Part shown: piece by piece, positions 10,126-39,708 of the stretch
Numbering within the stretch: position 1 is the stretch's first letter
Layout: each line of letters starts with the position of its first letter
Origin: a virus
DNA: 56,162 bases
IMG/VR virus record: IMGVR_UViG_3300045988_083024
Strand: one strand, 5' to 3'
Made by a program: the position numbers and the translations under genes
The notes under the pieces: model-generated
Databases searched by the model: none
What the model saw: the letters and a program-made list of their open reading frames with translations, nothing else
What the model was told of the DNA's origin: nothing

Positions 10126-10127
10126 GA

Positions 10128-10631: not shown

Positions 10632-10655
10632 GGGGTAATCACCGTTTTTGTGCCG

Positions 10656-10692
10656 GGGGCGTGGTCTGAAAAGGCTGCGCCCCATTTTTATT
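10656..10692 (+). terminator. Terminator/attenuator after the tail tube gene
   Basis: Stem ggggcg/cgcccc followed by atttttattt. Confidence 0.45.
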
Positions 10693-10709
10693 TGTAAAGG
10701 AGATTCACT

Positions 10710-11755: not shown

Positions 11756-11769
11756 AAGGTGGTGAAGCA

Positions 11770-19267: not shown

Positions 19268-19762
19268 ATGGCAGATAAACGAATCCAAGATTTTGCAACG
19301 CTGGCAGAGGCGGCGGACGATGACCTGATTCTGGTATCGTCCAGTGGTGAAACCTATAACATCAAGGTTTCCACCCTGAAAGCCGCTGTGTCTGCGGCAT
19401 TGCAGTCTACTCTGGGCAGTCTTTCTACGGGCAAGGCGGATAAAACTACCGTTAATACTCTGGATCAGAATTTCAAGAACTTTGTCAAGGACACCAACAC
19501 CGCGCTGGCTGGTAAGGCAGACACATCTTCCGTGTCCACCCTTAATACCACGGTAGAAGGGCTGAAAAAGACCAAAGCTGATGCGTCCACCGTAAATGCC
19601 CTGAACGGCACTGTGGAAGGGCTGAACGGCACTGTGGAAGGGCTGAAAACGTCCAAGGCAGACACATCTTCCGTCACCAAGTTACAGCAGAGCATTGACG
19701 GGCTGGGCCTTGTTATCAAGGACGGCAAGCTCTGCATCAAGATCAAGAAGGAGGTTTCCTAA
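19268..19762 (+). CDS. Tail fibre shaft protein with heptad-like repeats
   Basis: Repeats of the form TxxxLxxTVEGLKxxKAD. Contains a perfect 21-bp tandem duplication. Confidence 0.5.
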   Translation: MADKRIQDFATLAEAADDDLILVSSSGETYNIKVSTLKAAVSAALQSTLGSLSTGKADKTTVNTLDQNFKNFVKDTNTALAGKADTSSVSTLNTTVEGLKKTKADASTVNALNGTVEGLNGTVEGLKTSKADTSSVTKLQQSIDGLGLVIKDGKLCIKIKKEVS

Positions 19763-21003
19763 TGGCTACTAAGAAAAATGCTGCTGCGGCTCAAGCCGCT
19801 ACCGAGGACGAAGCCATGACCACGGCAGAGGTCAGCACTCAGGCGGATGAGGTCGCAGAACCTATTCTGCTGGATAACACATTCAAGGATACCATGAACC
19901 AGACCAATGCACTGCTGGCTGCTATCGCAGGTCAGAACTACCCGATCACCAGCTGGAAAGCCGTGCAGAACATCGTCCGGCTGGGCCTTGCTCCTAGCGT
20001 GTTCTCTGTGGGCGATCTGTTCAAGGTCAGCAAGGGTTCCGAAACCCTGACCTTTGAGGTCGCTGGTTTCGATAGTGAAACTCTGGTGGACAAAACCAAG
20101 AAACACAGTATGCAGCTCCATCTGCTGAACGTCTACAAGCAGATGCAGTGCGACAACACCGAGGCCCTGTATTATACCAAGGACGGTCTGGCCGCTGGCA
20201 TTTACCACTTCACCCTGTTGCCCGGTTATGATACCACCTATGGCGGCGGTTCTACGTTCCAGTTCCAGCTGACCAAGCCCGTTCCCGCTGGTGGCATTCT
20301 GATGTTCCCGTGGGGCTGGAATACGCAGGCCAGCACTACCAAGATCAGCAGCTACACCAAGGTGACGGACACGGATGCAATCGAAACCGTGCCCGTTTCT
20401 CTGGGCGCGGGCGGCACTGATCTGGGCACGGCAGACGGCAAGACCGAGAACATGAACCATACGCACCGCATCCGCTACGGCTCCAACAACTGGAGCGAAT
20501 CTGCAATCCGTCAGTGGCTCAACTCTGATGGCGCGGCTGGTACGTTCTGGGTTCCCAAGACCGTTTTTGACCGTCCTCCCACATGGAATAGCTCTATGAC
20601 GGGCTGGATGAACGGCATGGATGCTGACTTCCTCGAAGTCATCGCTCCGGTCAAGCTGACTACCGCCCGGAACAATGTCAACGAGAACGGCGGCAGCGAT
20701 GTGACCATCGACAAGTTCTATTTCCCCTCCCGCCCGAACCTGTACATGGGCAAGGAAAACGGCATTGACGAAGGCCCCGAATGGCAGCGTTATTCCGCTT
20801 ACAGCGACAAGGATACCGTCAATACTGGCGCGGATTCTGCCCGCATCAAGCGGCTGAACGGCAATCCGCAGTGGTACTGGATCAGAACGCCGGGCACTGG
20901 CAGCGCGAACTATGTGCGCAGTGTCAACTCTGACGGTTCTCTGAACACCAACATTGCGAACAGCGGCAATGGCGGCGTGGCCCCGGATTGTACCATCGCT
21001 TAA
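19762..21003 (+). CDS. DGR target protein 1 (putative receptor-binding protein with a C-type-lectin-like variable C-terminus)
   Basis: Last tail gene. The C-terminus WIRTPGTGSANYVRSVNSDGSLNTNIANSGNGGVAPDC is encoded by VR1. Confidence 0.8.
   Translation: MATKKNAAAAQAATEDEAMTTAEVSTQADEVAEPILLDNTFKDTMNQTNALLAAIAGQNYPITSWKAVQNIVRLGLAPSVFSVGDLFKVSKGSETLTFEVAGFDSETLVDKTKKHSMQLHLLNVYKQMQCDNTEALYYTKDGLAAGIYHFTLLPGYDTTYGGGSTFQFQLTKPVPAGGILMFPWGWNTQASTTKISSYTKVTDTDAIETVPVSLGAGGTDLGTADGKTENMNHTHRIRYGSNNWSESAIRQWLNSDGAAGTFWVPKTVFDRPPTWNSSMTGWMNGMDADFLEVIAPVKLTTARNNVNENGGSDVTIDKFYFPSRPNLYMGKENGIDEGPEWQRYSAYSDKDTVNTGADSARIKRLNGNPQWYWIRTPGTGSANYVRSVNSDGSLNTNIANSGNGGVAPDCTIA
20888..20991 (+). repeat. DGR variable repeat 1 (VR1)
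   Basis: 104 nt align gap-free to TR 21522-21625. All 8 mismatches are at TR adenines. Confidence 0.9.
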
Positions 21004-21013
21004 TCTTACCAAT

Positions 21014-21031
21014 CCGCGCCGACAGGCGCGG
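21014..21031 (+). promoter_or_regulatory. Hairpin downstream of VR1 (ccgcgcc-GACA-ggcgcgg)
   Basis: 7-bp GC stem with a 4-nt GACA loop, 22 nt after VR1. A similar hairpin with the same loop follows VR2. Confidence 0.7.
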
Positions 21032-21067
21032 ACATTCAGTTAATCTAACGTAAAGGATGAATCTATT

Positions 21068-21631
21068 ATGGCAGTAGTCGCAGGAAAACGTAAAGACGGA
21101 GAACTGAAATTCCTTACCACCAGCGCACAGCTGGCCAAGTACACGATGGATATTTGTGGCAACGAAAAAAGTTTTCCGAAAAGATACCGCTGGTGTTTTA
21201 TCGGAAAAATCGTTGATGCCGCGATTGAAGTCTTTGTGGTGGCGTTCAGAGCGAACAAAGTCTACGTTGAACCCGGCGACATGGATGCTGCTATGCGGCG
21301 TTTCAATCTCCAGTCCGAATCCATTGAAGCCTCCTACCAGCTCGAAGCACTGGCGAATCTGGCATACATGATGTTCGGACTGGAAGAAAGCCGCATCGAG
21401 TTCTGGACGAAACTCATCAATGAGAGCCGCAACAAGCTGAGAAGCTGGCGAAAGTCCGATAAAGAACGATTCATCGACCCTTATGATACAAATAACGGGG
21501 TAACGGCTATGATGCAGCCTCCGCCGAACACTGGCAACGCGAACAATGTGCGCAATGTCAACTCTGACGGTTCTCTGAACAACAACAATGCGAACAACGG
21601 CAATGGCGGCGTGGCCCCGGATTGTGAGTAA
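21068..21631 (+). CDS. avd: DGR accessory variability determinant (Avd); the ORF stays open through the TR
   Basis: Helical basic protein between target and RT (KYTMDICGNEKSFPKRYRW..., LEALANLAYMMF). The Avd-like part probably ends near 21480. Confidence 0.7.
   Translation: MAVVAGKRKDGELKFLTTSAQLAKYTMDICGNEKSFPKRYRWCFIGKIVDAAIEVFVVAFRANKVYVEPGDMDAAMRRFNLQSESIEASYQLEALANLAYMMFGLEESRIEFWTKLINESRNKLRSWRKSDKERFIDPYDTNNGVTAMMQPPPNTGNANNVRNVNSDGSLNNNNANNGNGGVAPDCE
21522..21625 (+). repeat. DGR template repeat (TR)
   Basis: Asn-codon rich (aac/aat), 29 adenines. Matches VR1 and VR2 except at adenines, with one T>G exception in VR2. Confidence 0.9.
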
Positions 21632-23165: not shown

Positions 23166-23198
23166 GCCCCCGCGCCGTGCTGAAAGGAGGTGCATAGT

Positions 23199-23855
23199 AT
23201 GGCAATTATCGACTTTGCACGGGATGACCCGCGCATGATTACTGCCAATTTTGGGCTGGCCGAGTTCCAGTGCCCGCCTACCTGTGGCTGCAATGCCCAG
23301 CTGATTGATGATGACCTCATCAAGCGGCTCCAGACCATCCGCGATAAACTGGGCGGCAAGATCAAGATTACCAGCGGATACCGCTGCATCAAGCACAATA
23401 AGCACGTTGGCGGCGGCAAAGCAAGCAAACATCTATATGGTGTTGCTGCTGACTGGCGGATGCAGGATCGTAGCATCAACCCGGTAGCACTGGGCATTGT
23501 GGCTACACGGTATTTTGGAGCCGTGGGCATCTACTGGTATGGCAATTCCGCCTTTGTCCATACCGATACCCGCAAGGGCAAGGCAACATGGCTCTGCACC
23601 GCTAAGGGCAAGTACGTTTATACGAGTTACCGTTCTTTCATTCTGCCCACGATCAAAAAGGGCTGTACGGGAGATGTCAACAAGTCCGCAACTCAGATGA
23701 TCCAGCGGCTGCTGGGCATCCCTGTGGATGGTAACTTTGGTATCGGTACAGAAAACGCCCTGCGGAAAGCTCAGGCGGCGCATGGGCTGACCGTGGATGG
23801 AATTTGTGGCCCCGCCAGCTGGAGAGCGATTTCCGGGGCGGATAAGTACCTGTAA
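23199..23855 (+). CDS. Endolysin: M15-type peptidase plus peptidoglycan-binding domain
   Basis: ITSGYRC..HN..VGG...SKHLYGVAADW, then a C-terminal PG-binding repeat (LLGIPVDGNFGIGTENALRKAQAAHGLTVDGICG). AGGAGG RBS. Confidence 0.8.
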   Translation: MAIIDFARDDPRMITANFGLAEFQCPPTCGCNAQLIDDDLIKRLQTIRDKLGGKIKITSGYRCIKHNKHVGGGKASKHLYGVAADWRMQDRSINPVALGIVATRYFGAVGIYWYGNSAFVHTDTRKGKATWLCTAKGKYVYTSYRSFILPTIKKGCTGDVNKSATQMIQRLLGIPVDGNFGIGTENALRKAQAAHGLTVDGICGPASWRAISGADKYL

Positions 23856-23862
23856 GGAGGGT

Positions 23863-24339
23863 ATGATGGAGGAGAACTTTTACAAGACCAAAGCGATTCT
23901 GTGCGCTTTGGTCGGGGCCGTTACGGGGTATCTGGGCGATCTGGCTATCCCGTTTTATCTGCTGGTGTTGTGCAACATCATCGACTATGCAACGGGTGTC
24001 ACCGCTGCACCGTACCGCTCTATCCGGCGCAGTAGCTACCGCTCCTTTCTGGGCATTCTCAAAAAGGTTATGCAGTGGCTGCTGGTGCTGGTGGGCTGGA
24101 TCATGGATCAGCTGATTACTTATCTTTCTTCCGGCGTGGGCTGGAACCTGAATGACAGCGTGGTCGTGGCCTGCGTGGTCTGCGTATGGTTGATGTGCAA
24201 CGAAATCATCAGCATCATCGAAAATCTGTCTGACATCGGCGTGAAAATCCCGCCGTTCCTCATCCCGCTGGTCGATTTCGTCAAGCGCACCACTGAGGAA
24301 AAGGGGGATTCCGCCGCTGGTAACTCCAAGGAGGGTTAA
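23863..24339 (+). CDS. Holin (multi-TM)
   Basis: Several TM segments and NEIISIIENLSDIGVKIP. Directly after the endolysin gene. Confidence 0.7.
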   Translation: MMEENFYKTKAILCALVGAVTGYLGDLAIPFYLLVLCNIIDYATGVTAAPYRSIRRSSYRSFLGILKKVMQWLLVLVGWIMDQLITYLSSGVGWNLNDSVVVACVVCVWLMCNEIISIIENLSDIGVKIPPFLIPLVDFVKRTTEEKGDSAAGNSKEG

Positions 24340-24341
24340 TT

Positions 24342-24734
24342 ATGGATTGGACTACTTTCTTCAAGGATATTTGTCTGGCTTTTGTGCCTGTCGTGGGTCT
24401 GTTTGCGTGTACCGCACTGCACAGCATCGCGGATTATTTCGTGGGCAAAACCAACGATACCACCACCCAGAAGTATATCCGTGAGATCGAGGATGCCATC
24501 ATCAAAGCGGTTCGGACGGTGGCACAGACCTACACGAAGAAGCTGAAAGCGCAGAACGCATTCGGCGAGGCGGAGGAAAAGATTGCAAACCGCAAGGCCA
24601 TCGAGGTGGCCCGTGCATCCCTGTCCTCTGGGGCGGTCAGTTACATCTCCAAGACCTACGGCGATGTTGACACGTTCCTGTCTAACGGCATCGAATCCAC
24701 CCTGAACGCCATCAAGGACGCAAAGAAGAACTGA
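24342..24734 (+). CDS. N-terminally anchored membrane protein (LL-H holin-like)
   Basis: One N-terminal TM helix, then a helical Lys/Ala-rich domain. Last gene of the lysis cassette. Confidence 0.45.
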   Translation: MDWTTFFKDICLAFVPVVGLFACTALHSIADYFVGKTNDTTTQKYIREIEDAIIKAVRTVAQTYTKKLKAQNAFGEAEEKIANRKAIEVARASLSSGAVSYISKTYGDVDTFLSNGIESTLNAIKDAKKN

Positions 24735-24740
24735 GCATCT

Positions 24741-24780
24741 GCCCCCGGTGAGCCTAACCAGCCCGCCGGGGGCTTTTTCT
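24741..24780 (+). terminator. Rho-independent terminator ending the late operon
   Basis: Stem gcccccgg/ccgggggc, then TTTTT. Confidence 0.7.
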
Positions 24781-24785
24781 GTTTT

Positions 24786-25030
24786 CCTAACATTCCGCCT
24801 AACATTTCGCCTAACGTCTAACGTCCGTGTTAGAATCGCGTCTAACAGCTAACATTTTTGTTATGACGTGTGTTAGGTGCGCTTTTTAACGGTGAATCGT
24901 TTTATTGTTTGCACCCTAACATTCTAACATCATTTTGTAAAAAAATTCAAATCTTACTAATTAGGGAAAACACCTAATGCCTGTGATGCCTAAATTCGTA
25001 TATCTATACGCGCGGGCGCGTGAGATGTTA
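24786..25030. repeat. Iteron-like block A: 10 copies of YCTAACR (both orientations) plus a conserved CCTAAT/CGCGC-palindrome tail
   Basis: Copies at 24786, 24798, 24810, 24817, 24828(inv), 24841, 24848, 24871(inv), 24915, 24923. The tail 24959-25030 is about 75% identical to 52692-52764. Confidence 0.75.
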
Positions 25031-25066: not shown

Positions 25067-25095
25067 TTGACATGAGCAGAAAAATGAACTATAAT
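25067..25095 (+). promoter_or_regulatory. Consensus sigma-70-type promoter (TTGACA-17-TATAAT)
   Basis: tattgacatgagcagaaaaatgaa is identical over 24 nt to the early promoter at 39778-39801. It is flanked by GAGCAGAAAA-type repeats at 25033, 25074 and 25116. Confidence 0.75.
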
Positions 25096-25140
25096 CACGT
25101 CAGAGCCTCGTGATTGAGCAAAAAATTAAACGAAAGGAAG

Positions 25141-25353
25141 ATGACCATGCTGTTCTACCGCCTCATGTGCTTATGGATGCCGGAATACCATGCCCGGTGT
25201 CTGGCACAGTTCCCGGACACGATGCTGTTTCTGGTTCTGCTGTTTCTGTCGCTGTGCGCACTGTACTATTATAGTCCGTTTCAGCGCACCTATCCGCTGG
25301 ATCGGCTGCTGAACGATGCAGCCCGCTGGCTGGATAAGGTGTTTCTGGAATGA
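25141..25353 (+). CDS. Small hydrophobic protein
   Basis: MTMLFYRLMCLWMP...LFLVLLFLSLCALYYY. RBS AAAGGAAG. First gene after the promoter. Confidence 0.5.
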   Translation: MTMLFYRLMCLWMPEYHARCLAQFPDTMLFLVLLFLSLCALYYYSPFQRTYPLDRLLNDAARWLDKVFLE

Positions 25354-26075
25354 TGCCGCCGTACAAGAACAGCGAGTATTACACCGATTGGACGGCTTAC
25401 AAGGCCATTCAAAATATAGAAAGGAAGTCTACCATGCTTATTTCATCTGTAAAGAATCCTCTCCCCGGTCAGGTGTACGAAACTACCTCGACCAACGGCA
25501 ACACTTTCACCGTGCTGGTGCTGGCTGCATCTCAGGATGATACCGTCAGCACTACCCGCGTCTACGATCAGCCCCGGCTCATCAACAGCCAAAACATCCG
25601 GGTGAACAATCGCATGATGTACATTGACCCGTCCAAGATGGGCTTTGCCCAGAACGCAAACCTGATGGGCCTGATTGGTACGCTGCCGCCGGAAGATATG
25701 ATTAAGGTTCGCCGCGCTATGGTGTCCATCTACAATCTGGGTACGGCTGCGGCAGACATTCCCGCTATCCCGGATGCTCCTGTCGTGGAAAAGCCCGTGG
25801 ACAAGGTGGAAAACAACGACAAGACCCGCATTAACGCTCTGGAAAAGGAACTGGCCGAAACCAAGGCGCAGGCAGAGCAGTACAAGCAGGAAAGCGATGA
25901 ATATGCGGAAAAAATTGAATTTGCGAACGCTGACCGTGATCTGGCTAAGGACTTTCTGAAAGACGCGCAGGATCAGATGGAAAGCTTGAAAAAGGAAATC
26001 GCGGCCATCACTGCCGAATCCGCTACCTATTCTAAGCTGCTCCATGAGCTGCTGGACAAGCTCATGCAGAAATAA
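25350..26075 (+). CDS. Hypothetical protein with a C-terminal coiled-coil
   Basis: 241 aa. ATGA overlap with the previous ORF (alternative start at 25434). The C-terminal 90 aa are heptad-rich. Confidence 0.55.
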   Translation: MMPPYKNSEYYTDWTAYKAIQNIERKSTMLISSVKNPLPGQVYETTSTNGNTFTVLVLAASQDDTVSTTRVYDQPRLINSQNIRVNNRMMYIDPSKMGFAQNANLMGLIGTLPPEDMIKVRRAMVSIYNLGTAAADIPAIPDAPVVEKPVDKVENNDKTRINALEKELAETKAQAEQYKQESDEYAEKIEFANADRDLAKDFLKDAQDQMESLKKEIAAITAESATYSKLLHELLDKLMQK

Positions 26076-26095
26076 TAACATTTGGAGGTTTTACC

Positions 26096-26665
26096 ATGGA
26101 TTACGAAAGCATTCAGAATCTTCACGCGGGCGACCACTTCAACTTTAAGGGGCTGGAGTGGGTAGTCCTCGACCCGGACAAGGAGGGCGGCGTTCTCGCC
26201 ATCACCGCTGACCTCTGGGCTGAGGATGTGCCGTTCAGTCAGGAGTATTTCGAGGGCTGCAACGACTGGCGCAAGTCCACTATCCGCGAGAAAGTTCGCG
26301 GGCTGATGCACAAGATCGGCGTGGATAATCTGCTGCCGCACATTGTCGATCTGGTGGCCGATAACGGCGATAAGCTGTACGGCACGATGGAGGAAATGGT
26401 TTTCCTGCTGACCTGTGACGAGTATCGCAAATACCGCGATGTGATCCCCAAGTACCGCCGCTGGATTTGGACGTGTACCCCGTGGACTACAACGTACACT
26501 GGCTACGCGAGCTATGTGCGCCTTGTCAGCGCTGACGGTTCTCTGTACAACAACCTTGCGAACTACGGCATTGGCGGCGTGGCCCCGGCTTGCATCTTCA
26601 ATCCCCGGAATCTCAAATTGCGCCGACAGGCGCAGTTCGTGGAATCGCCTACACATGACGATTGA
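26096..26665 (+). CDS. DGR target protein 2 (small, 189 aa, no signal peptide)
   Basis: WTCTPWTTTYTGYASYVRLVSADGSLYNNLANYGIGGVAPAC is encoded by VR2. Upstream NDWRKSTIREKV and FLLTCDEY resemble target 1 (NNWSESAIRQWL, FYFPSRPN). Confidence 0.8.
   Translation: MDYESIQNLHAGDHFNFKGLEWVVLDPDKEGGVLAITADLWAEDVPFSQEYFEGCNDWRKSTIREKVRGLMHKIGVDNLLPHIVDLVADNGDKLYGTMEEMVFLLTCDEYRKYRDVIPKYRRWIWTCTPWTTTYTGYASYVRLVSADGSLYNNLANYGIGGVAPACIFNPRNLKLRRQAQFVESPTHDD
26493..26592 (+). repeat. DGR variable repeat 2 (VR2)
   Basis: 100 nt align gap-free to TR 21525-21624 with 14 mismatches. 13 are at TR adenines; one is T>G at TR 21563. Confidence 0.85.
26619..26634 (+). promoter_or_regulatory. Hairpin downstream of VR2 (tgcgcc-GACA-ggcgca)
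   Basis: 6-bp stem with the same GACA loop as at 21014-21031, 26 nt after VR2, inside the 3' end of the target ORF. Confidence 0.65.
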
Positions 26666-26680
26666 GCGGAGGATCAGCAC

Positions 26681-27241
26681 ATGAGAGATACATTTTGGAA
26701 AGTGATCGTCACCGTGGCCCTGATCGCGGTTCTGACCTTTGGTGTGGGTCTGTTCATTGTACAGGGCGTGAAGAATACTGCCATTTCCTACGAGGAACAG
26801 GTAGCCGCTGCCCAGTCTGATATTCAGGTGCAGGAAAAACGCCGCTCAGACCTCATCCCGAATCTGGTTGAAACGGTCAAGGCATACGACAAGCACGAAT
26901 ACGATACTCTTATGACCGTTATCGCGGCGCGTGGTAGCAGTTCCGATGCTGCCGTGTCTGAGATTACCACCCAGATTGCAGCCGTGGCAGAGGCTTACCC
27001 GGAACTGCAATCCGCTGACAACTATCGGGAGCTGATGAACGAGCTGGCAGTCACCGAAAATCTGATTGCGAATTACCGCTCTGACTATAACCGCACGGTC
27101 AAGAGTTATCGGCAATATGTTCGCCGTTTTCCCAATAGCACGTTTTTGAGCCTGACCGGGTATGAGGTACAAAGCTATGCGCTCTTATCGTTCAACGTAT
27201 CGGAGGATGCTCCGTCTGTCGGAAACCTCTTTGGAGATTAA
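26681..27241 (+). CDS. lemA: LemA-family membrane protein
   Basis: N-terminal TM, then QVQEKRRSDLIPNLVETVKAYDKHE and AEAYPELQSADNYRELMNEL..NYRSDYN. Confidence 0.8.
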   Translation: MRDTFWKVIVTVALIAVLTFGVGLFIVQGVKNTAISYEEQVAAAQSDIQVQEKRRSDLIPNLVETVKAYDKHEYDTLMTVIAARGSSSDAAVSEITTQIAAVAEAYPELQSADNYRELMNELAVTENLIANYRSDYNRTVKSYRQYVRRFPNSTFLSLTGYEVQSYALLSFNVSEDAPSVGNLFGD

Positions 27242-27965
27242 CGGAAGCGAGATCACGTTCCGGGAGATTCTGGCAAGTGCCGTTATTGTGCTGGCGATGC
27301 TGATTCTGGGCACGGTCATTTCTGGCCGCATCAAGCAGATGGCAATGGAGCGCAAGCAGGAATATACCACCGCGATTGATATTTCTTCTGATGATCGGTT
27401 TGCCTACGGGCTGCGGACGGACGTTGGACGGGCATTCTGTTACGGTACACTGTCCGCCGTGGACACGGTATCGGAGGATCGGATCGGCGGGCCGTATATG
27501 TACATTTACTGCGAGGAACAGCACTACAATATGCACACCCGCACGGTAGCGCATACTGATGGCAAGGGTCACACCTATACTACCACGGAAATCTATTATT
27601 CGTGGGATTATGCGGGTTCTGATACATGGCATTCGCAGACTGTGCATTTTCTGGGCAAGGATTTTGACTACGGGCAAATAGATATGCCCAGTAGCGAGTA
27701 TCTGACCACAAAATACAGGGGTAGCAGCGTTCGATTTGAATACTATATCCGGCCTGTGGAGTACACGGGCACGATGTATGCCACGCTCACCGGGCACACG
27801 ATTCAGGATGCCGCGTTCCATGATGGAACTGACATTGACCAGACGCGGGAACTCCTGATGTCCGGCGCAGATGGCTGGGCAGTCATATTCTGGATAGTCT
27901 GGATCATTCTCACAGCGGCGGCTGTGTTCGGCTTCTGTACGCTTGAAAACGACTGGCTGAAATGA
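27177..27965 (+). CDS. Two-TM membrane protein with a central beta-rich domain (LemA partner; possibly GIDE-like)
   Basis: TM near each end (AVIVLAMLILGTVI; WAVIFWIVWIILTAAAVFGF). RBS GAGGT precedes ATG 27177. Overlaps the lemA 3' end. Confidence 0.55.
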   Translation: MRSYRSTYRRMLRLSETSLEINGSEITFREILASAVIVLAMLILGTVISGRIKQMAMERKQEYTTAIDISSDDRFAYGLRTDVGRAFCYGTLSAVDTVSEDRIGGPYMYIYCEEQHYNMHTRTVAHTDGKGHTYTTTEIYYSWDYAGSDTWHSQTVHFLGKDFDYGQIDMPSSEYLTTKYRGSSVRFEYYIRPVEYTGTMYATLTGHTIQDAAFHDGTDIDQTRELLMSGADGWAVIFWIVWIILTAAAVFGFCTLENDWLK

Positions 27966-27971
27966 GTATAC

Positions 27972-28007
27972 AGCCCGCAAAGGTATCCGCTTTTGCGGGC
28001 TTATTTT
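27972..28007 (+). terminator. Rho-independent terminator ending the VR2/LemA operon
   Basis: Stem agcccgcaaa/tttgcgggct, then TTATTTT. Confidence 0.65.
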
Positions 28008-28023
28008 GAAAGGGGTTTTACCT

Positions 28024-28734
28024 ATGGCTGTAAAAATCATCAAGGGCGATCTGCTCAACTGTGGGGCAGACATCATCTGTCACCAGACTAACTTTTTCGG
28101 CATGATGGGCGGTGGCGTGGCCGCGTCCATCTGGAATCAGCTGCTGGATCAGCAGGACAGGAAGGAATACTGCTCCCTGTGCCGCGATATGCGCGGCAGT
28201 CTGCTGGGCAGTGTCCAGATGCTCACTCATCATGGCAAGCCGTATGTGGCGAACCTGTTCTCCCAGATGGCAGAGCCGGATAAGTTCGACAGCCTGACCG
28301 ACTATCGCAAGCTGCGCCGTTGTCTGCATGAGGTCAAGATGTTCGCAAAGCAACGCGGCTACACTGTGGCGATGCCCGGATTTCTCGGCTGCGGCATTGC
28401 CGGTGGTAACTGGGATGAGGTGTATAAGATTATTCTGGAAACCTTTGAAAAGTACCCGCTGGACGTGTTCATTGTGTTCCTGCCCGGTATCACCATCCCC
28501 GGCGAGTACACGGTGGAGCTGTGGAAGGAACGCTGTGACCCGGTTCTGCACGAGTATCAGAGCCGCGTCAGCTTTGTCACTGGTCTGCCCAGTTTGGATG
28601 AAGCAACGGCCTATGTGCATCGGTACATTGCCGAAAACAATGACGGGGTAAACCTGTTCAAGATCATGGATTCCAAGAACCAGCAGATCAAGACGTTTTA
28701 CCGGGATGGCAATGGAAAGGTGGTACAGGAATGA
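28024..28734 (+). CDS. Macrodomain protein with an uncharacterised ~90-aa C-terminal extension
   Basis: IIKGDLLNCGADIICHQTNFFGMMGGGVAASI and AMPGFLGCGIAGGNWDEV match macrodomain ADP-ribose-binding loops. Confidence 0.7.
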   Translation: MAVKIIKGDLLNCGADIICHQTNFFGMMGGGVAASIWNQLLDQQDRKEYCSLCRDMRGSLLGSVQMLTHHGKPYVANLFSQMAEPDKFDSLTDYRKLRRCLHEVKMFAKQRGYTVAMPGFLGCGIAGGNWDEVYKIILETFEKYPLDVFIVFLPGITIPGEYTVELWKERCDPVLHEYQSRVSFVTGLPSLDEATAYVHRYIAENNDGVNLFKIMDSKNQQIKTFYRDGNGKVVQE

Positions 28735-29357
28735 GCGTAGAATTGAGGGATTGCCCGTTCTGTCATAGGCCCGCCGTATTTGTTGGTGTGCATGACAATG
28801 AGGGCAACTATAAAGGCGTTCCCGGATGCGAGTACGAAAGCGATCCGTGGAGTGGTTTGTCCTATGGCCTGCATCATAAAGGCTGGGGCGAATGTGTCCT
28901 TTGCACCTGCGGCGAAGATGCAGTTATGGGCGGTGTTCTGTTCGACACAGCAGAACAAGCTGCCCGTTATTGGAATTACGGAGGCAATCTTATGAAGAAA
29001 AAAGCAATGATTTCCCAGCCGATGAACGGCAAAACGGACAAGGAGATACTGGCCGTCCGAGATCAGGCCGTCAACACGCTTACCCAGATGGGCTATCGGT
29101 TTGTCAATAGCTTGTTTGAGGATGATGGCAAGGAAGAATACTGGTTTACCCCGGATGCCCTTAAAAAGCGCGGCATTGAGAACATCCCGCTGTGCTACCT
29201 TGCCCGCTCTCTGGAAGTTATGTCGCAGTGCCATGCTGTCTACTTCTGCAAGGGCTGGGATCAGGCTCGTGGATGCCGTTTGGAGCATGATGCCGCTGTC
29301 GCCTACGGCATGGAAGTCCTCTACGAGGACGGCGCAGCGCGGGAGGTAAAGGGATGA
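28731..29357 (+). CDS. Fusion ORF: Lar-like zinc ribbon (N-terminus) plus DUF4406 / nucleoside 2-deoxyribosyltransferase-like domain (C-terminus)
   Basis: N-terminus LRDCPFCH...CTCG...AEQAARYWN. C-terminus MKKKAMISQPMNGK...AVYFCKGWDQARGCRLEH. No stop codon separates them. Confidence 0.5.
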   Translation: MSVELRDCPFCHRPAVFVGVHDNEGNYKGVPGCEYESDPWSGLSYGLHHKGWGECVLCTCGEDAVMGGVLFDTAEQAARYWNYGGNLMKKKAMISQPMNGKTDKEILAVRDQAVNTLTQMGYRFVNSLFEDDGKEEYWFTPDALKKRGIENIPLCYLARSLEVMSQCHAVYFCKGWDQARGCRLEHDAAVAYGMEVLYEDGAAREVKG

Positions 29358-30085
29358 CATTTTGTGGTGTTCCGTCAATTCGCCCATACTGGAATGGATG
29401 CCAAAATCTAATGAATGGCAAGAGGTTGAAAGTTCTGGAACTTTTTGCGGGAACACGCAGTATTGGAAACGCCTTTGAATCGAAAGGGCATGAGGTGTTT
29501 TCCGTTGAGTGGGACAAGAATTTTGAAAATATCAATCTTTACGCCGATATTTTGAATGTCAGTGCGGACGATATTCTATCAAGATTTGGACACCCGGATG
29601 TAATTTGGGCAAGTCCAGACTGTACCACGTTCAGTATTGCCGCTATTAGTCACCACAGGAAAAGAAACCCGGACACAGGGAATCTTGACCCGGTGAGCGA
29701 TTACGCAAAGTTCTGTGATAAGGTCGATCAGCACGTTTTACAGCTTATAAAAGACCTTGACCCGGCACTTTACTTTATCGAGAACCCACGGGGGGGGATG
29801 CGGAAAATGGCTTGGATGAAGTCTTTACCGCGTTATACTGTTACATATTGTCAGTACGGCGATACACGGATGAAACCAACTGACATCTGGACAAATCACC
29901 CTGATCCTCAATTCAAGCCCATGTGTAAGAATGGCGATCCGTGCCATGTTCCAGCCCCCAGAGGGAGCAAAACAGGCACACAGGGCTTGAAAAACAGCAG
30001 AGAGAGAAGCGTTATACCTAAACTGCTTTGTCAACATATCGTTGATATTTCGGAACGATACTTTAAGGAGAACAGCCATGCGTAG
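29354..30085 (+). CDS. DNA cytosine-C5 methyltransferase (short form)
   Basis: VLELFAGTRS (motif I), SPDCTTFS (motif IV-like, catalytic Cys), FIENPRG (motif VI). Confidence 0.7.
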   Translation: MTFCGVPSIRPYWNGCQNLMNGKRLKVLELFAGTRSIGNAFESKGHEVFSVEWDKNFENINLYADILNVSADDILSRFGHPDVIWASPDCTTFSIAAISHHRKRNPDTGNLDPVSDYAKFCDKVDQHVLQLIKDLDPALYFIENPRGGMRKMAWMKSLPRYTVTYCQYGDTRMKPTDIWTNHPDPQFKPMCKNGDPCHVPAPRGSKTGTQGLKNSRERSVIPKLLCQHIVDISERYFKENSHA

Positions 30086-33186: not shown

Positions 33187-33578
33187 CCGCAAAAGATTTG
33201 CACGTTGGGCAGACCGTCTACGTTTATTATTGTGGGTACGATCCGCGCCGGGCTAAAGAGTTTGGTCTTAAACCCGCTACGATTAAAAGCATAGGCCGGA
33301 AGTGGTTCTATTTGGATGAGATTGGCTATCCGCTATGCTACCGATTCAGCATTGAAACGGGCGCGATTGATGGGCATGGGTATTCTAGCGAATACAAAGC
33401 TATCCTTGATCCTGCCAAGTATTATGACGCGATAGATCGCAGCATAGTAAATGATGTTACACGACAGATCGGCGCACTACGAAACTGCTCTATGGATCAG
33501 ATACGAGAGATCGCCCGTATTCTGGGTATCGAGAACAAATTCTGTGAGCGTAAATACAAAGCCAAAGAAAACGCTTGA
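33183..33578 (+). CDS. Hypothetical protein
   Basis: About 131 aa; the ATGA start overlaps the previous stop. Confidence 0.45.
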   Translation: MTAKDLHVGQTVYVYYCGYDPRRAKEFGLKPATIKSIGRKWFYLDEIGYPLCYRFSIETGAIDGHGYSSEYKAILDPAKYYDAIDRSIVNDVTRQIGALRNCSMDQIREIARILGIENKFCERKYKAKENA

Positions 33579-33617
33579 CTTTTTGTGTGGTCAATAATAA
33601 TATAGTTGTACACACAA
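33575..33617 (+). promoter_or_regulatory. Promoter TTGACT-17-TAATAT with TTGT-N4-ACAA type palindromes
   Basis: -35 at 33575-80 and -10 at 33598-603. ttgtgtggtcaa (33583) lies in the spacer; ttgtacacacaa (33606) lies just downstream. Confidence 0.55.
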
Positions 33618-33857: not shown

Positions 33858-33903
33858 AGCCCTCAGAGTTTGGAACATTACCAGCTCTGGGGGCTTTTTA
33901 TTT
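33858..33903 (+). terminator. Rho-independent terminator
   Basis: Stem agccctcagag/ctctgggggct, then TTTTTATTTTT. Confidence 0.65.
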
Positions 33904-33977
33904 TTGTCCGCACAAAAAATATTTTGAAAAACTATTGACTTTTTGTGCGGACAAGAATATACTTACTGTGCGGACAA
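33904..33977 (+). promoter_or_regulatory. Promoter TTGACT-17-TATACT with three copies of a 12-bp palindrome
   Basis: ttgtccgcacaa (33904), ttgtgcggacaa (33943, in the spacer), ctgtgcggacaa (33966). -35 at 33935-40, -10 at 33958-63. Confidence 0.6.
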
Positions 33978-34005
33978 AAAGTAGAACAAGCCGCAGAAAG
34001 AAAGG

Positions 34006-34392
34006 ATGACCACTATGAAGCCTACGATTGAAATTCTCAGCACCCTGACCGATGACCAGTACACCACGTTCCGCATGATGCGCACCCGCTGCTACTGCTG
34101 GAACCCCGATGCCGAGAAGATCACCTTTGAATCCGACATCGGCGAGCAGACCATGACCTTTGACACATGGGAGGATGCCCGGAGATTCGCAGAAAGCCCC
34201 GACAAGAATCAGTACATCCGTAAATCCGATGTCGTGTCTATGCTGAACGAGCGTCTGGACAGCATTAAAACGGGCATGGACTATGCGAGGGATCGGATGG
34301 ATCACGAAGTATTCAGCCTCTACCATCGCCAATATACCGAGGTCAAGTCCATCCTGAGTGATCTGGACGATCTGGAGCAGCACGAGTTCTAA
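34006..34392 (+). CDS. Hypothetical acidic protein (the start may be ATG 34015)
   Basis: 128-aa ORF downstream of the operator-containing promoter. Confidence 0.5.
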   Translation: MTTMKPTIEILSTLTDDQYTTFRMMRTRCYCWNPDAEKITFESDIGEQTMTFDTWEDARRFAESPDKNQYIRKSDVVSMLNERLDSIKTGMDYARDRMDHEVFSLYHRQYTEVKSILSDLDDLEQHEF

Positions 34393-34455
34393 CCGATGCA
34401 AACCTGCCTGACGATGACCCGGCGGCACGGGTCGAAACACTCCCCCTAGTAGGGA

Positions 34456-34758
34456 GTGTCGCGGGAGCCAATACCGCAGAACACGGAGGGTTTTACCACG
34501 AAAAGAGTTACATTCACTTACGATTCCAAGGACATGAAGCACGGCATCAACGGCGAGATCGGCGAGGCTTGCGCGTCCATCTTGCTGGACGATGACCGGG
34601 CAGAGGAAATCCGCGCTGCATTCAACGAGAACCGCAAAGCCGCAGCCACTTACATCATGCGTGAGCGGGCAATCGGATTCTGTTGGAGCTGCGAGCATCT
34701 GCGCGGGCGTGGGTTTATCGAGGACAGCATCAGGAGCGTACAGGTTGAGGACATCTAA
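34456..34758 (+). CDS. Hypothetical protein (start unclear)
   Basis: 100-aa ORF with protein-like composition. Only a GTG start with no spaced RBS. Preceded by two hairpins (34416-34433, 34437-34459). Confidence 0.35.
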   Translation: MSREPIPQNTEGFTTKRVTFTYDSKDMKHGINGEIGEACASILLDDDRAEEIRAAFNENRKAAATYIMRERAIGFCWSCEHLRGRGFIEDSIRSVQVEDI

Positions 34759-34774
34759 CAGGGAGGGCAAGGCT

Positions 34775-35098
34775 ATGAGCATCGCAACTATTATTCTCGA
34801 TCAGCTGGGCGGGCCGGGATTTATTATGATGACTGGGGCCAAGAACTTTGTTTCGGACGGTAACACACTCCGCATGACCCTGCCGCGTAACGCAAGCGGC
34901 GCGAACCGTTTGTATATCACCCTCACCCCGATGGATGATTACACGATGCGGTTCTTCAAGCACACCAATGGCCGGATCACCCGCACGGGCCGCTGGATTG
35001 ATGACAAGAATACCGATGTCGAGGTGGTCAATGGTGTGTTCTGTGACACGTTGCAGGAGAACTTCACCCGTGTTACCGGGCTGGCAACTCATCTTTGA
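34775..35098 (+). CDS. Hypothetical protein
   Basis: MSIATIILDQLGG... RBS GGGAGGG 7 nt upstream of the ATG. Confidence 0.5.
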   Translation: MSIATIILDQLGGPGFIMMTGAKNFVSDGNTLRMTLPRNASGANRLYITLTPMDDYTMRFFKHTNGRITRTGRWIDDKNTDVEVVNGVFCDTLQENFTRVTGLATHL

Positions 35099-35218: not shown

Positions 35219-35908
35219 TTACCACTGAATAGCTAAGATAGATGCGTTAGAATAGCTGTCAATTCCAGAGAACGGCTGAATTTCAAAGGCTCTGGTTTCT
35301 CCGGCTTTCAAATCATCGACAAACGTAGAATCCCCACCGATGGGCTTTTCTACACCGTTCTGATCTTTTTTAAGGTAGATAACAGTAACTCGCGCCATTG
35401 TATCGTGCTGGCTGTTGTTAGTGACTTTTCCTGTGTAATAGACGTTTGATCCAGTTCCTTTTCGTGCAACGTCAGATGTTACCAGTTCATTTGAACGAAT
35501 AATGTCATACCCATTCGGTGAAACATAATCATCGTAATCCGCCCAAACGCGAAAATCAACTCGATCAGGTACGGTTCCATCGTATTCGTAGGTGAAATAG
35601 TCTGCGTACCAGTAACTGTCATCAGCAGCAATCCATGATAACACCTGATCTTCTACCTTGATGACACTTCCATCCTTTGCCGAAACCGTTGTTTCGATAT
35701 GAGGATACATCACTGCTAAATTTTTATTCGTGTTCTCAATCTTAACAGCATAGAATATGCGCACAACGCCATCTCTTATAAGCGGGTACACGCCATAGCT
35801 TTTAATCCCGATGGGTTCATACTCCTGTGGCGAAGTGGCGAACGCAATGTCAGAAAAGCAAACCAGCGTTAAAAGAACCGCTATGGCCGCAACAATCTTT
35901 TTCCTCAT
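35219..35908 (-). CDS. Secreted beta-rich protein (moron on the opposite strand)
   Basis: Signal peptide MRKKIVAAIAVLLTLVCFSDIAFA/TS. RBS AAAGGAG. Own promoter and terminator. Confidence 0.7.
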   Translation of the reverse strand: MRKKIVAAIAVLLTLVCFSDIAFATSPQEYEPIGIKSYGVYPLIRDGVVRIFYAVKIENTNKNLAVMYPHIETTVSAKDGSVIKVEDQVLSWIAADDSYWYADYFTYEYDGTVPDRVDFRVWADYDDYVSPNGYDIIRSNELVTSDVARKGTGSNVYYTGKVTNNSQHDTMARVTVIYLKKDQNGVEKPIGGDSTFVDDLKAGETRAFEIQPFSGIDSYSNASILAIQW

Positions 35909-35954
35909 AATGACACTCCTTTTCATTTGAAAGATAGGCGCACGGGCTGTCTTT

Positions 35955-35983
35955 ACTATATCATGCGCAAGGGTATCCGTCAA
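35955..35983 (-). promoter_or_regulatory. Minus-strand promoter TTGACG-17-TATAGT for the secreted-protein gene
   Basis: Reverse complement of cgtcaa (35978-83) and actata (35955-60), 17-nt spacer. Confidence 0.45.
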
Positions 35984-36054
35984 ATGAAAGAATGAGCAAT
36001 TTTTTGAACTAGGCAACGCATTTTGTATAGATTTTTTGACTTTTCGATTTTCTA

Positions 36055-36097
36055 TTGACTTGTAGTGCGCTACAATGTATAATCGTAGTGCGCTACA
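36055..36097 (+). promoter_or_regulatory. Promoter TTGACT-17-TATAAT bracketed by two copies of GTAGTGCGCTACA
   Basis: -35 at 36055-60 and -10 at 36078-83. 13-mer repeats at 36062-74 (in the spacer) and 36085-97, each with TGTAG/CTACA dyad arms. Confidence 0.65.
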
Positions 36098-36113
36098 AAA
36101 AGGAGGTAAAACG

Positions 36114-36287
36114 ATGGCGCAACAGAGCCGTGCGGAGTATTTCAGAGAGCGCAGAAAAGAGAAAAAGCAGTTTTCTGTATTATCTTCCCGCGAATTAGTG
36201 GAACGCTTAGAAGCCAAGCTAAAAGAACAGGGTAAAACTAAGGTTCAGTGGTTCGAGGAAATGGCTAACGAAGAACTCCGCAAATAA
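36114..36287 (+). CDS. Small RHH-like DNA-binding protein
   Basis: 57 aa. KQFSVLSSRELVERLEAKLKEQG fits a strand-helix-helix pattern. RBS AAGGAGG. Confidence 0.5.
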   Translation: MAQQSRAEYFRERRKEKKQFSVLSSRELVERLEAKLKEQGKTKVQWFEEMANEELRK

Positions 36288-36390: not shown

Positions 36391-36418
36391 GCAATCAATA
36401 TTGAGAGGTCAAAAAACT

Positions 36419-36589
36419 ATGGATACTACCGTAAAAGAAAAAGTCATGGCAGAGATTGAGAACATCGACAGCATGATCTGTGTTATTACAGAGCATGAGC
36501 CGCACATGGGCCGTATCGCCGATGCAATGATACGCGAAATCATGGAAACCACTTCCTGCATTTTGGATATTCTGAAAAAGGCGGTGTGA
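36419..36589 (+). CDS. Hypothetical small protein
   Basis: 56-aa ORF immediately upstream of the Bro-N gene. Confidence 0.4.
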   Translation: MDTTVKEKVMAEIENIDSMICVITEHEPHMGRIADAMIREIMETTSCILDILKKAV

Positions 36590-36592
36590 GAT

Positions 36593-37297
36593 ATGGACGG
36601 ATTGCAAGTGTTCTCCCGCCCAGAGTTCGGAAACATCCGCACTCTTACTATTGAGGGCGCACCGTGGTTTGTCGGAAAGGATATAGCCGCCGCTTTAGGG
36701 TATAAGGACAGCGTGAACGCCTTAAAATCACACGTTGACGATGAAGATAAGAGGGGGTGGCGAGTTACCACCCCCTCCGGTGAACAGCAAGCAAACATCA
36801 TCAACGAAAGCGGTTTGTACTCGCTCATCCTGTCCAGCAAGCTCCCAGCTGCGAAGCAATTTAAGCGGTGGGTCACATCTGAGGTGTTGCCCGCTTTACG
36901 GAAAACAGGACAGTATCAGATTGTGCCTGAGCCAGAACCGGGGCAAGAAGCTACACGCGCTTTAACCACAGATGACTACATTACTGCCGCGCAGATTGTT
37001 TCTCGCTGCCGGAGTGACCGACTGCCCATTGTCCTGACCCTGTTAGACCGTGGCGGCTTTGACACGGCATTGATTCCGCAAGCTACCCATCGAACAGAAC
37101 ACCGCCGCCCCGGTCGTGCGTTGCTCCCAGTAGCTAACCCGGACAATGACGAGGTGATTGCGGTTCTTTCGCATTATGGTGTTCGTGAAGCGGCAGAACT
37201 GACAGGATTAAATCCGGGTTTGATTTCTGTCTATCGGCGGGGTATCCGCAAACCGCCAGCAGAACAGCGTGAACATATTCTTGTGGTTCTAAGTTAA
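36593..37297 (+). CDS. Bro-N domain antirepressor-like protein
   Basis: FGNIRTLTIEGAPWFVGKDIAAALGY...SGLYSLILSSKLPAAKQFKRWVTSEVLPALRKTG. Confidence 0.75.
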   Translation: MDGLQVFSRPEFGNIRTLTIEGAPWFVGKDIAAALGYKDSVNALKSHVDDEDKRGWRVTTPSGEQQANIINESGLYSLILSSKLPAAKQFKRWVTSEVLPALRKTGQYQIVPEPEPGQEATRALTTDDYITAAQIVSRCRSDRLPIVLTLLDRGGFDTALIPQATHRTEHRRPGRALLPVANPDNDEVIAVLSHYGVREAAELTGLNPGLISVYRRGIRKPPAEQREHILVVLS

Positions 37298-37306
37298 AGC
37301 ATAGCA

Positions 37307-37339
37307 AAAGGCCCGTAGGCGTTTAACCTACGGGCCTTT
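37307..37339. terminator. Bidirectional terminator between the Bro-N and integrase genes
   Basis: 13-bp stem aaaggcccgtagg/cctacgggccttt. Overlaps the integrase stop codon. Confidence 0.6.
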
Positions 37340-39309: not shown

Positions 39310-39708
39310 TTACGCACCCGCCTGTGTGTGCTGCACCACCCGATACTTTTCATTTGACAGCAGATAGTCCATAAAGGATTCCGCCTTTTTCCGATCTTCG
39401 TCATCGAGGCTTAAATACATATCTATAATCTTGATTCCAGTCTGATCCTCATTGGAATCAGTTTTTGCTTGATCTGGTACGCCTTTGCTGTAATCAGTTT
39501 TATCATCGGTGCGCTCTAACAGATAATCGGTGGATACATGAAAATAATCCGCAATCTTTACCAGTTCGGTCTGTTTCGGTGCGATTCCGTTTTTCTTCCA
39601 TCCGCTAATAGAACCTCTTGAAACACCCCAAAGATTGGCCAGCGATTCCGAATGTGTGCTTACACCCATTTCATCACAGCAAGCCTTATACCTGTCGAAA
39701 AAAGCCAT
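39310..39708 (-). CDS. XRE-family (CI-like) repressor
   Basis: HTH LANLWGVSRGSISGWKKNGIAPKQTELVKIADYFHVSTDYLL. Divergent from the early operon. Confidence 0.8.
   Translation of the reverse strand: MAFFDRYKACCDEMGVSTHSESLANLWGVSRGSISGWKKNGIAPKQTELVKIADYFHVSTDYLLERTDDKTDYSKGVPDQAKTDSNEDQTGIKIIDMYLSLDDEDRKKAESFMDYLLSNEKYRVVQHTQAGA

Follow-up and report, generated by a model that had tools for sequence, protein, structure and literature searches.

A remote second target of a phage diversity-generating retroelement lies in a small stand-alone DUF6273 protein

Background

Phage diversity-generating retroelements (DGRs) are usually read as tropism-switching devices that act on tail fibres. The genome described here, IMG/VR record IMGVR_UViG_3300045988_083024, raises the question of what else such an element may diversify. 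The window, by which we mean the whole analysed stretch of 56,162 nucleotides, ends in 119 nt that are identical to its first 119 nt (1-119 and 56044-56162), indicating a circularly closed, complete phage genome of 56,043 bp. Its DGR consists of a reverse transcriptase (RT) gene, a template repeat (TR) and a variable repeat (VR1) in a large DUF6273 gene next to the tail genes. A second variable repeat (VR2) is found kilobases away in g3, the third gene of a five-gene unit that also encodes a one-transmembrane (TM) protein (g1), a coiled-coil protein (g2), a LemA-family protein and a two-TM protein (g5). An earlier interpretation of this locus, made from the letters of the genome and referred to here as the sequence-only reading, suggested that the five genes may act as a membrane-associated module built around a diversified binding protein. 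What g3 is diversified for, and whether its neighbours take any part in it, are the questions that this locus poses.

The account that we consider probable is that one DGR diversifies two genes, that the g3 product is a cytoplasmic protein and not a component of the virion, and that the LemA/two-TM pair and the g1-g2 pair are separate cassettes. The window is a clean and complete example of one DGR with two targets. Comparison with other genomes shows that the small remote target belongs to a large and widespread family that has its own hairpin within the coding sequence, is found in non-structural regions and lacks export signals.

VR2 is a remote copy of the template repeat

VR2 aligns with the TR without gaps, and all but one of its mismatches are at TR adenines (Table 1). 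Since the TR has 29 adenines per 100 nt, the binomial probability of finding at least 13 of 14 mismatches at adenines is 1.0e-6, confirming the claim of the sequence-only reading that VR2 is a second, remote repeat of the TR. VR1, TR and VR2 were also recovered independently as a three-copy family by a repeat search. The observation of a remote VR2 is thus real and far beyond chance. VR2 begins 3.6 kb past the RT stop codon and 4,968 nt from the TR, beyond the lysis cassette and a terminator, as had been described, with the qualification that the site in question (24760-24774, between the lysis genes and VR2) is only weak and terminator-like. It was likewise stated that VR2 is more diverged than VR1; this holds for the mismatch counts (14 versus 8), but no age can be read from them, since the adenine positions are randomised anew at every retrohoming event.

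VR2 encodes residues 133-166 of the g3 protein. When the TR is read in the g3 frame, its adenines fall on the first (14) or second (15) position of a codon and never on the third. The placement of adenines at the first two codon positions, in AAY-type codons, is the classic design of DGRs and avoids the creation of stop codons.

Sequence elements at the 3′ end of VR2

In the DGR of Bordetella phage BPP-1, the initiation of mutagenic homing (IMH) sequence together with a hairpin is sufficient to direct retrohoming into a heterologous gene, and the stem of this hairpin acts through structure rather than sequence whereas its loop is sequence-dependent (Guo et al. 2011, PMC3240598). Both types of element can be recognised in the window. 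A GC-rich, IMH-like run of 16 nt forms the 3′ boundary of VR1, TR and VR2 alike; the three sequences part 5-10 nt later, and the functional IMH/IMH* boundary is not definable from sequence alone. A hairpin core of the form GCGCC-GACA-GGCGC follows both VRs at a distance of 26-29 nt and occurs exactly twice in the 56 kb, and an exact-pattern search of the window found no copy after the TR. The VR2 hairpin is part of the g3 coding sequence, where it encodes ...LRRQAQ.... In an abundant subfamily of 182-aa homologs the hairpin has the same offset and reads GCACC-GTCA-GGTGC, a compensatory double change in the stem that alters two residues (RRQAQ to HRQVQ) and keeps the pairing. The covariation of the stem across subfamilies suggests selection on DNA structure.

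On these grounds, trans-acting retrohoming of VR2 by way of homology, the IMH-like run and the hairpin appears well supported. TR RNA would be reverse-transcribed with random nucleotides incorporated opposite adenines, and the cDNA would replace VR2 in trans, guided by the three features just named. In this process about 16 residues on the beta-hairpin face of a lectin-like domain would be re-randomised, and the specificity of g3 may change in step with that of the tail protein.

Across the family, VR diversity goes only partly with possession of the hairpin, since variation persists in a few clusters that lack a perfect one. Two subfamilies of g3 homologs that have no hairpin after the VR-equivalent show an invariant VR-equivalent peptide, one in nine loci (L079, L080, L084, L085, L087, L089, L091, L092 and L095) and the other in five (L065, L066, L070, L072 and L097); these look like retired or never-diversified paralogs.

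Variation of g3 among related genomes

Between-genome variation gives good support to the view that VR2 is probably an active DGR target in nature. Among 27 relatives of the g3 protein (66-93% identity) the scaffold is almost invariant, and the residues that derive from AAY codons of the TR take many values. For the 14 closest sequences (13 relatives with at least 81% identity, plus the protein of the window), entropy is 1.96 bits at adenine-templated codons versus 0.25 bits elsewhere (p = 2e-11), and the same confinement of variability to adenine codons is seen in the 182-aa subgroup. In sister loci, g1, g2, LemA, g5, the RT and the lysis genes are 94-100% identical; the corresponding value for g3 is only 75-92%. 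VR2 itself differs in almost every near-identical genome, with scaffolds and flanking genes that are 94-99% identical.

A sub-lineage represented by two loci from independent samples (L007 and L008) may serve as a natural control for the loss of VR2 cis-elements. Here the IMH-like run is mutated from GGCCCCGG to GGCCCAAG, and the hairpin has an exactly inverted loop (GACA to TGTC) on a stem that is retained and lengthened to 9 bp. In this sub-lineage 10 mismatches of VR2 lie outside the adenines, and the same VR2 was recovered from both samples. In L007 (10394-10560 and 10586-11146), and likewise in L008, the mutated run and the inverted loop co-occur with a nonsense codon in LemA.

The g3 gene of near-identical phages also varies outside the VR. 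Residues 40-75 (26213-26320) occur in three or four alleles and residues 121-122 (26456-26461) are hypervariable. The variation at these positions is not adenine-templated, which points to recombination or to selection acting on a second patch of the protein surface.

The g3 protein and its family

That the VR2 gene product is a 189-aa protein with neither a signal peptide nor a TM segment was borne out, TM prediction having found none in g3. Besides its PHROG assignment (Table 1), g3 has a weak match to DUF6273. An AlphaFold2 model built from a diverse alignment of 114 sequences has a pLDDT of 94 and a pTM of 0.88 and shows a single globular domain; an alignment of 39 similar sequences gave a pLDDT of 54, and that model was discarded. 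Foldseek searches with the accepted model retrieved DUF6273-annotated phage proteins with a query-normalised TM-score (TMq) of up to 0.70. The sole match in the Protein Data Bank (PDB) was the N-terminal atypical C-type-lectin domain of the IgA peptidase (IgAse) of Thomasclavelia ramosa (9qa6, E 1e-6), and a profile search against PDB sequences returned chance matches only. On this model, g3 is a single-domain DUF6273 protein of a divergent C-type-lectin type. VR2 spans a beta-hairpin in the model (strands 140-144 and 150-154), and the VR of nd4_tgt2, a homolog from a gut phage, has likewise been reported to lie on a beta-hairpin (PMC10743442).

The family to which g3 belongs comprises 1,597 representatives after clustering at 50% identity, most of them 170-300 aa long. 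One member, P0168, is a giant repeat protein of 6,979 aa in which 17 separate stretches match the family profile, mostly its N-terminal two-thirds.

Gene neighbourhood and cellular role

The genomic surroundings of the family were examined in 101 rows of g3-homolog loci from viral contigs, genomes, metagenomes and GenBank phages, with flanks of up to +/-10 kb; for the viral contigs, a scan with an alignment of close relatives proved too specific (3 loci), and a broader alignment yielded 80 loci. In the prophages L014 and L015, a divergent integrase and a small, helix-turn-helix (HTH)-like open reading frame (ORF) are followed by the homolog as the first gene of any size, and then by genes for a RecU/Hjc resolvase, a DEAD helicase, a Tad2-like protein and ERF. 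An integrase-proximal position, with a serine integrase about 1 kb upstream, recurs in 16 loci. The neighbours in other subgroups include DNA methyltransferases, a CCA-adding enzyme, RNA ligases, late-activator-type regulators and a transposase. In 114 diverse representatives, neither a signal peptide nor a TM segment was found at the N-terminus. Four homologs (P0236, P0169, P0233 and P0245) carry N-terminal modules: an XRE-type HTH (HTH_3, E 7e-15), a Lar restriction-alleviation zinc ribbon (9e-14), YopX (3e-10) and a zinc ribbon. Modules of these kinds are typical of cytoplasmic phage early-gene products.

Immediately downstream of the five-gene unit, a cluster at 28006-30085 contains a DarG-like Macro-domain gene, then a gene for a 208-aa DUF4406 protein with a Cys-rich N-terminus (CPFC...), and then a C5 DNA methyltransferase gene. 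By eye, the N-terminus of the DUF4406 protein looks like a Lar-type zinc ribbon, and the cluster as a whole looks like a set of counter-defence genes. Methyltransferase and Tad2-like genes are also frequent neighbours of g3 homologs elsewhere.

Three features are the reasons for reading g3 as a cytoplasmic, non-virion protein: the early, replication, DNA-modification or accessory neighbourhoods of its homologs, the lack of export signals, and the fusions to HTH, Lar, YopX and zinc-ribbon modules. Gene position and domain context would thus make it an early or accessory ligand-binding protein rather than a virion receptor-binding protein, a conclusion less certain than that on the diversification of VR2. 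The literature on small DUF6273 targets points to this role not having been proposed before.

Several points weigh against the account given here. Only the location of the genes and their domain context speak for a cytoplasmic, non-virion role. A protein that lacks a signal peptide can nevertheless join virions during cytoplasmic assembly, and the g3 gene of the window sits after the lysis cassette, outside the early operon. One internal mismatch of VR2 falls outside the TR adenines (T21563 to G), and two further differences between VR2 and TR, at 21621 and 21625, follow directly on the 3′ side of the GC run. The ORF that precedes the RT is inferred to be Avd from its position, and no family library confirms that identity. 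Published interpretations of related targets favour Mtd-like receptor binding (PMC10743442; bioRxiv 10.1101/2024.10.15.618418), and no read-level signal was found at either VR of phage Lelie (PMC11792537).

The main competitor is accordingly a g3 protein that is made in the cytoplasm and then attached to the tail or head, as an Mtd-like second receptor-binding protein or adhesin that widens binding to hosts or mucus. Its VR shares a template with a tail-adjacent target, its C-type-lectin fold is that of Mtd and other receptor-binding tips, and some of its Foldseek matches are annotated as receptor-binding protein or tail-collar fibre; a view of this kind has been suggested (PMC10743442; bioRxiv 10.1101/2024.10.15.618418), and the gene is core in Toutatisvirus, being present in 98.8% of phages. 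However, g3 consists of one domain and lacks an N-terminal domain for attachment, as PMC10743442 says of nd4_tgt2 as well, and it resembles the VR1 protein in the VR alone. Some 90 of about 100 loci have no tail-module DGR, as marked by the RT or the accessory ORF, in their flanks, other structural markers being unscreened across all, and no structural gene was seen beside the homolog in about a dozen loci with annotated neighbours. In addition, the homolog is often the first sizeable gene past the integrase/repressor region, and fusions to HTH, Lar, YopX and zinc-ribbon modules would be unexpected for virion fibres. We therefore hold a place in the virion to be possible but rather unlikely. 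If g3 is indeed not a virion component, the accepted view of what phage DGRs diversify needs widening.

A more specific and still more doubtful proposal is that the small DUF6273 targets, g3 included, are early cytoplasmic proteins whose randomised surface binds variable intracellular partners in the manner of an 'intrabody'. The hints in its favour are the early position near the switch, the absence of export signals, the Lar, HTH and YopX fusions and the methyltransferase, Tad2-like and DarG-like Macro neighbours. The partners may be components of host defence or restriction, or proteins of competing phages. Were this tentative proposal true, the DGR would serve on two fronts, with the tail target acting in adsorption and the small target in an intracellular arms race. 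The remaining interest of the locus lies in the binding partner of a DGR-diversified protein that has no export signal and is encoded in an early region; the association with LemA does not matter in this respect.

State of VR2 in the window

It could also be argued that the VR2 of the window is a frozen relic, and that the diversity between genomes stems from past activity or from recombination. The mismatch at T21563 and the two differences 3′ of the GC run would fit such a state, the L007/L008 sister lineage shows that decay of this type occurs, the two invariant subfamilies described above (one VR in nine loci, one VR in five) show that frozen forms exist, and Lelie showed no read-level variation (PMC11792537). 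However, the IMH-like 16-mer and the hairpin core of VR2 are the same as those of VR1, and VR2 differs in almost every near-identical genome despite flanks of 94-99% identity. The internal mismatch, moreover, is at a site where related TRs have an adenine: the TR is polymorphic among sister loci, and those of L004 (5424-5547) and L005 (3395-3518) read ACT where the TR of the window has TCT at 21563. The T21563-to-G mismatch is best explained by a change made when the site was still an adenine, before the TR changed, or by exchange with an adenine-bearing relative. A frozen VR2 is hence improbable. Drift of the TR between sister phages also changes which positions can be diversified.

The five-gene unit

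The order of the five genes is as given in the sequence-only reading, with two start codons corrected: g1 most likely begins at 25147, giving 68 aa, and g5 at 27207, giving 252 aa. The promoter at 25067, which matches the sigma-70 consensus in 12 of 12 positions, and the terminator-like hairpin at 27972 are both present, and the -35 and -10 hexamers are kept in the five sister loci (L004-L008) despite a divergent spacer. Co-transcription of g3 with LemA and the membrane-protein genes from a promoter of their own is thus plausible. The statement that this promoter was copied from the early switch did not hold, as only the upstream block of CTAACA repeats is duplicated, and its second copy lies between the primase-helicase and nuclease/SNF2 genes, away from the integrase/repressor switch at 37-41 kb. 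CTAACA / CCTAACATT repeats fill this intergenic block of about 240 nt in both orientations, and they may serve as an array of binding sites for a phage regulator or as iterons.

The products other than g3 offer few clues. Searches of PADLOC and NCBIfam returned nothing for g1 to g5, and Pfam nothing for g1 or g5. The g2 protein gave weak matches of coiled-coil type and was found in same-lineage loci only. The TM segments of g5 are residues 15-33 and 216-234, and a homolog is present in 26 phage records; the names 'TMEM43' and 'RING E3' attached to some of these are annotations by the depositors only.

By its own account, the sequence-only reading would be refuted if relatives showed no conserved link between the target and LemA, and this is what the comparison of loci shows. 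LemA, the two-TM partner, g1 and g2 stand beside a g3 homolog in the six loci of the lineage of the window only; none of the four was found in any of 93 distinct loci (95 rows) outside that lineage, with flanks to +/-10 kb. Conversely, LemA is immediately upstream of the g5 homolog in all five other phages examined, namely Enterococcus phage EFDG1, two human-gut phages, Lysinibacillus phage LC76P1 and Latilactobacillus phage TMW 1.46 P1, and no g3 homolog or RT occurs in the 4-10 kb flanks examined. In Enterococcus Schiekvirus phages such as EFDG1 the cassette has the same genes in the same order (42% identity for LemA, 32% for the partner) and lies among nucleotide-metabolism genes, with no DGR, g3 homolog, g1 or g2 in the flank examined. 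Finally, a premature stop (Q51*) interrupts LemA in both L007 and L008, where g3, g1, g2 and g5 are intact.

Judged by gene order, LemA and its two-TM partner (phrog_1383 and phrog_3886) are an autonomous two-gene cassette. The absence of LemA linkage outside the lineage, the occurrence of the LemA-g5 pair without g3 and the Q51* stop together indicate that the unit is probably a mosaic of three parts, in which lineage-specific g1-g2, the widespread small DGR target g3 and the widespread LemA/two-TM cassette share one promoter. LemA beside g3 would then be a lineage-specific juxtaposition and not a conserved machine. What stands of the original description is a remote target in a soluble, non-structural-looking protein with plausible co-transcription; a functional five-gene LemA module is not supported. 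The proposal that g3, LemA, the two-TM protein, g1 and g2 form a membrane module for sensing, superinfection exclusion or host manipulation, which could draw on the tight operon-like packing between one consensus promoter and one terminator-like hairpin, on the conservation of the arrangement in five sister loci and on the joint decay of LemA and the VR2 cis-elements in L007/L008 as a hint of coupled loss, is very improbable given the lack of linkage in the 93 other loci, the autonomy of the LemA-g5 pair, the intact g3 beside a truncated LemA, the absence of a membrane anchor or export signal in g3 and the lack of defence-library matches.

Genome layout

The DGR follows the tail genes, its primary target gene coming directly after them and being preceded by a tape-measure-sized ORF of 1796 aa. 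The accessory ORF in the Avd position stays in the same frame as the VRs across the whole TR, and its last ~35 residues are TR-encoded (NTGNANNVRNVNSDGSLNNNNANNGNGGVAPDCE). It has no match in Pfam or NCBIfam, and homologs occur just upstream of related RTs in three other loci (L021, L039 and L049). The RT is 57-65% identical to the RTs beside the TR/VR pairs of these loci and 36% identical to the published Lelie DGR RT. A megablast search of the GenBank phage collection found no close relative of the 19-30 kb region. Two copies of a promoter-like element, 84% identical and 360 nt apart, are at 33568-33599 and 33928-33959 (AAAAC..TTGACTTTTTGTG.GG.CAA.AATA); they adjoin minus-strand ORFs (33898-34782, 35219-36217 and 36409-36876) for which there were no PHROG matches.

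Table 1. Features of the window; positions are those of the whole 56,162-nt stretch
Feature	Position	Strand	Remarks
Packaging, head and tail genes, DGR, lysis cassette	1-24.7 kb		
Primary DGR target, 413-aa large DUF6273 protein	19762..21003	+	PF19789 E 2.4e-17; phrog_19280
VR1	20891..20990	+	8 mismatches to TR, 8/8 at TR adenines
Hairpin 3′ of VR1	21013..21032 (core 21016-21029)	+	DNA fold and exact-pattern search
Accessory ORF in Avd position, 187 aa	21068..21631	+	3′ end reads through TR
TR	21525..21624	+	29 adenines
DGR reverse transcriptase, 364 aa	21790..22884	+	PF00078
Lysis cassette, between DGR and VR2	23190..24734	+	endolysin 23190-23855; holins 23797-24339 and 24342-24734; PHROG matches
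Duplicated block rich in CTAACA repeats	24786..25024	+	second copy 52530-52757
Accessory block	25-33 kb	+	
Sigma-70 consensus promoter (TTGACA, 17 nt, TATAAT)	25067..25095	+	12/12 match; predicted
g1, 68-aa one-TM protein	25147..25353	+	same-lineage loci only; no family match
g2, 241 aa, C-terminal coiled coil	25350..26075	+	start overlaps g1 stop (ATGA)
g3, 189-aa stand-alone DUF6273 / C-type-lectin-like protein	26096..26665	+	phrog_9958 E 5.4e-51
VR2	26493..26592	+	ungapped to TR 21525-21624; 14 mismatches/100 nt, 13 at TR adenines
GC-rich IMH-like 3′ boundary GGCGGCGTGGCCCCGG	26573..26588	+	same 16-mer in VR1, TR and VR2
Putative target-recognition hairpin within g3 coding sequence	26618..26636 (core 26620-26633)	+	29 nt past IMH-like run
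LemA-family protein, 186 aa, N-terminal TM	26681..27241	+	PF04011 E 1.8e-33; phrog_1383
g5, 252-aa two-TM protein, ~180-aa loop domain	27207..27965	+	phrog_3886 E 1.7e-69
Terminator-like hairpin, 13-bp stem	27972..28001	+	consensus match only
Macro-domain (DarG-like) gene	28006..28734	+	PF01661; PADLOC DarG 4.6e-10; NCBIfam DarG 8e-9; first gene of an accessory/DNA-modification block
Minus-strand block	33.9-41 kb	-	serine integrase 37323-38918; CI-type repressor 39310-39708
Early and replication genes	41-56 kb		

Comparison with known DGR systems

The sequence-only reading knew of no characterised equivalent of the g3 target. Homologous small remote DUF6273 targets have in fact been described in three reports (PMC10743442; PMC11792537; bioRxiv 10.1101/2024.10.15.618418), which leave their function open or liken it to that of Mtd, and g3 is a member of this published class of small, single-domain DUF6273 second targets located kilobases from the RT.

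A close counterpart already described is nd4_tgt2 of human-gut myophage nd4 (WRQ08026.1, 234 aa), which is 34% identical over 88% of g3 (E 4e-17, tblastn against GenBank phages). Like g3, nd4_tgt2 and nd12_tgt2 (Baykov et al. 2023, PMC10743442) have a single DUF6273/C-lectin domain with the VR near the C-terminus, and in nd4, as in the window, one TR diversifies the small target and a larger DUF6273 target. In nd4, as verified here, VR2 and TR are 11.7 kb apart and their mismatches are adenine-biased; this VR2 is found beyond the lysis gene, among replication genes. The two systems differ in their primary target: that of nd4 is a 'tentaclin' whose VR is N-terminal, and that of the window has 413 aa and its VR at the C-terminus. 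In addition, nd4_tgt2 is longer than g3 (234 versus 189 aa) and has no LemA cassette nearby.

A second group of counterparts comes from other phage genera. The 'small DGR target' orf58 of Faecalibacterium phage Lelie (PMC11792537) is a g3 homolog (32% identity, E 6e-7), and comparison of its VR with the TR 16 kb away places 15 of 17 mismatches at TR adenines (verified here). The small targets of Lelie and nd4 both lie past lysis or integrase genes, among early genes. In prophage CP11, variation was reported at both VRs across cognate genomes (PMC11792537). The second VR gene of FP_Toutatis, which has a tblastn match to g3, is a core DUF6273 gene of Toutatisvirus located 17,480 nt from the TR and found in 98.8% of genomes, versus 68% for the DGR (bioRxiv 10.1101/2024.10.15.618418). 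The Lelie, CP11 and Toutatisvirus systems differ from the window in phage genus, in the greater distance to the TR, in an early rather than post-lysis position and in the absence of LemA neighbours, and the studies that describe them do not deal with the hairpin, the surrounding genes, signals for export or fusions to other domains.

The two-target architecture is further present in L021 (a Ruminococcus metagenome-assembled genome), L039 and L049, with TR-to-VR distances of 6-10 kb and with 13 of 13, 18 of 24 and 11 of 12 mismatches, respectively, at TR adenines. Across the family, small targets are co-targeted from 5 to 17 kb, and a larger DUF6273 primary target adjoins the RT. The largest DGR survey could not detect remote targets because its contigs were too short (Roux et al. 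2021, PMC8144416). A further locus, L009, has a 69%-identical g3 homolog followed by an 87-aa acidic ORF and a 427-aa RVT_1 RT (10001-12121); it was considered as a compact cassette of target, accessory gene and RT and rejected, there being no TR copy in its 15.8 kb and its RT being unrelated to that of the window.

A further system for comparison is BPP-1, with which the window shares adenine-specific transfer from TR to VR, a GC-rich, IMH-like boundary, a variable protein of C-type-lectin fold, and a downstream hairpin with a 4-nt loop that is present at the VR and not at the TR (PMC3240598). The single target of BPP-1, Mtd, is encoded next to its DGR and is a trimeric tail-fibre tip that carries N-terminal domains for attachment. 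The window, in contrast, has two targets, the second of which is remote and single-domain and has its hairpin inside the coding sequence. The g3 gene and its VR2 add another example to the small remote DGR targets that have already been described.

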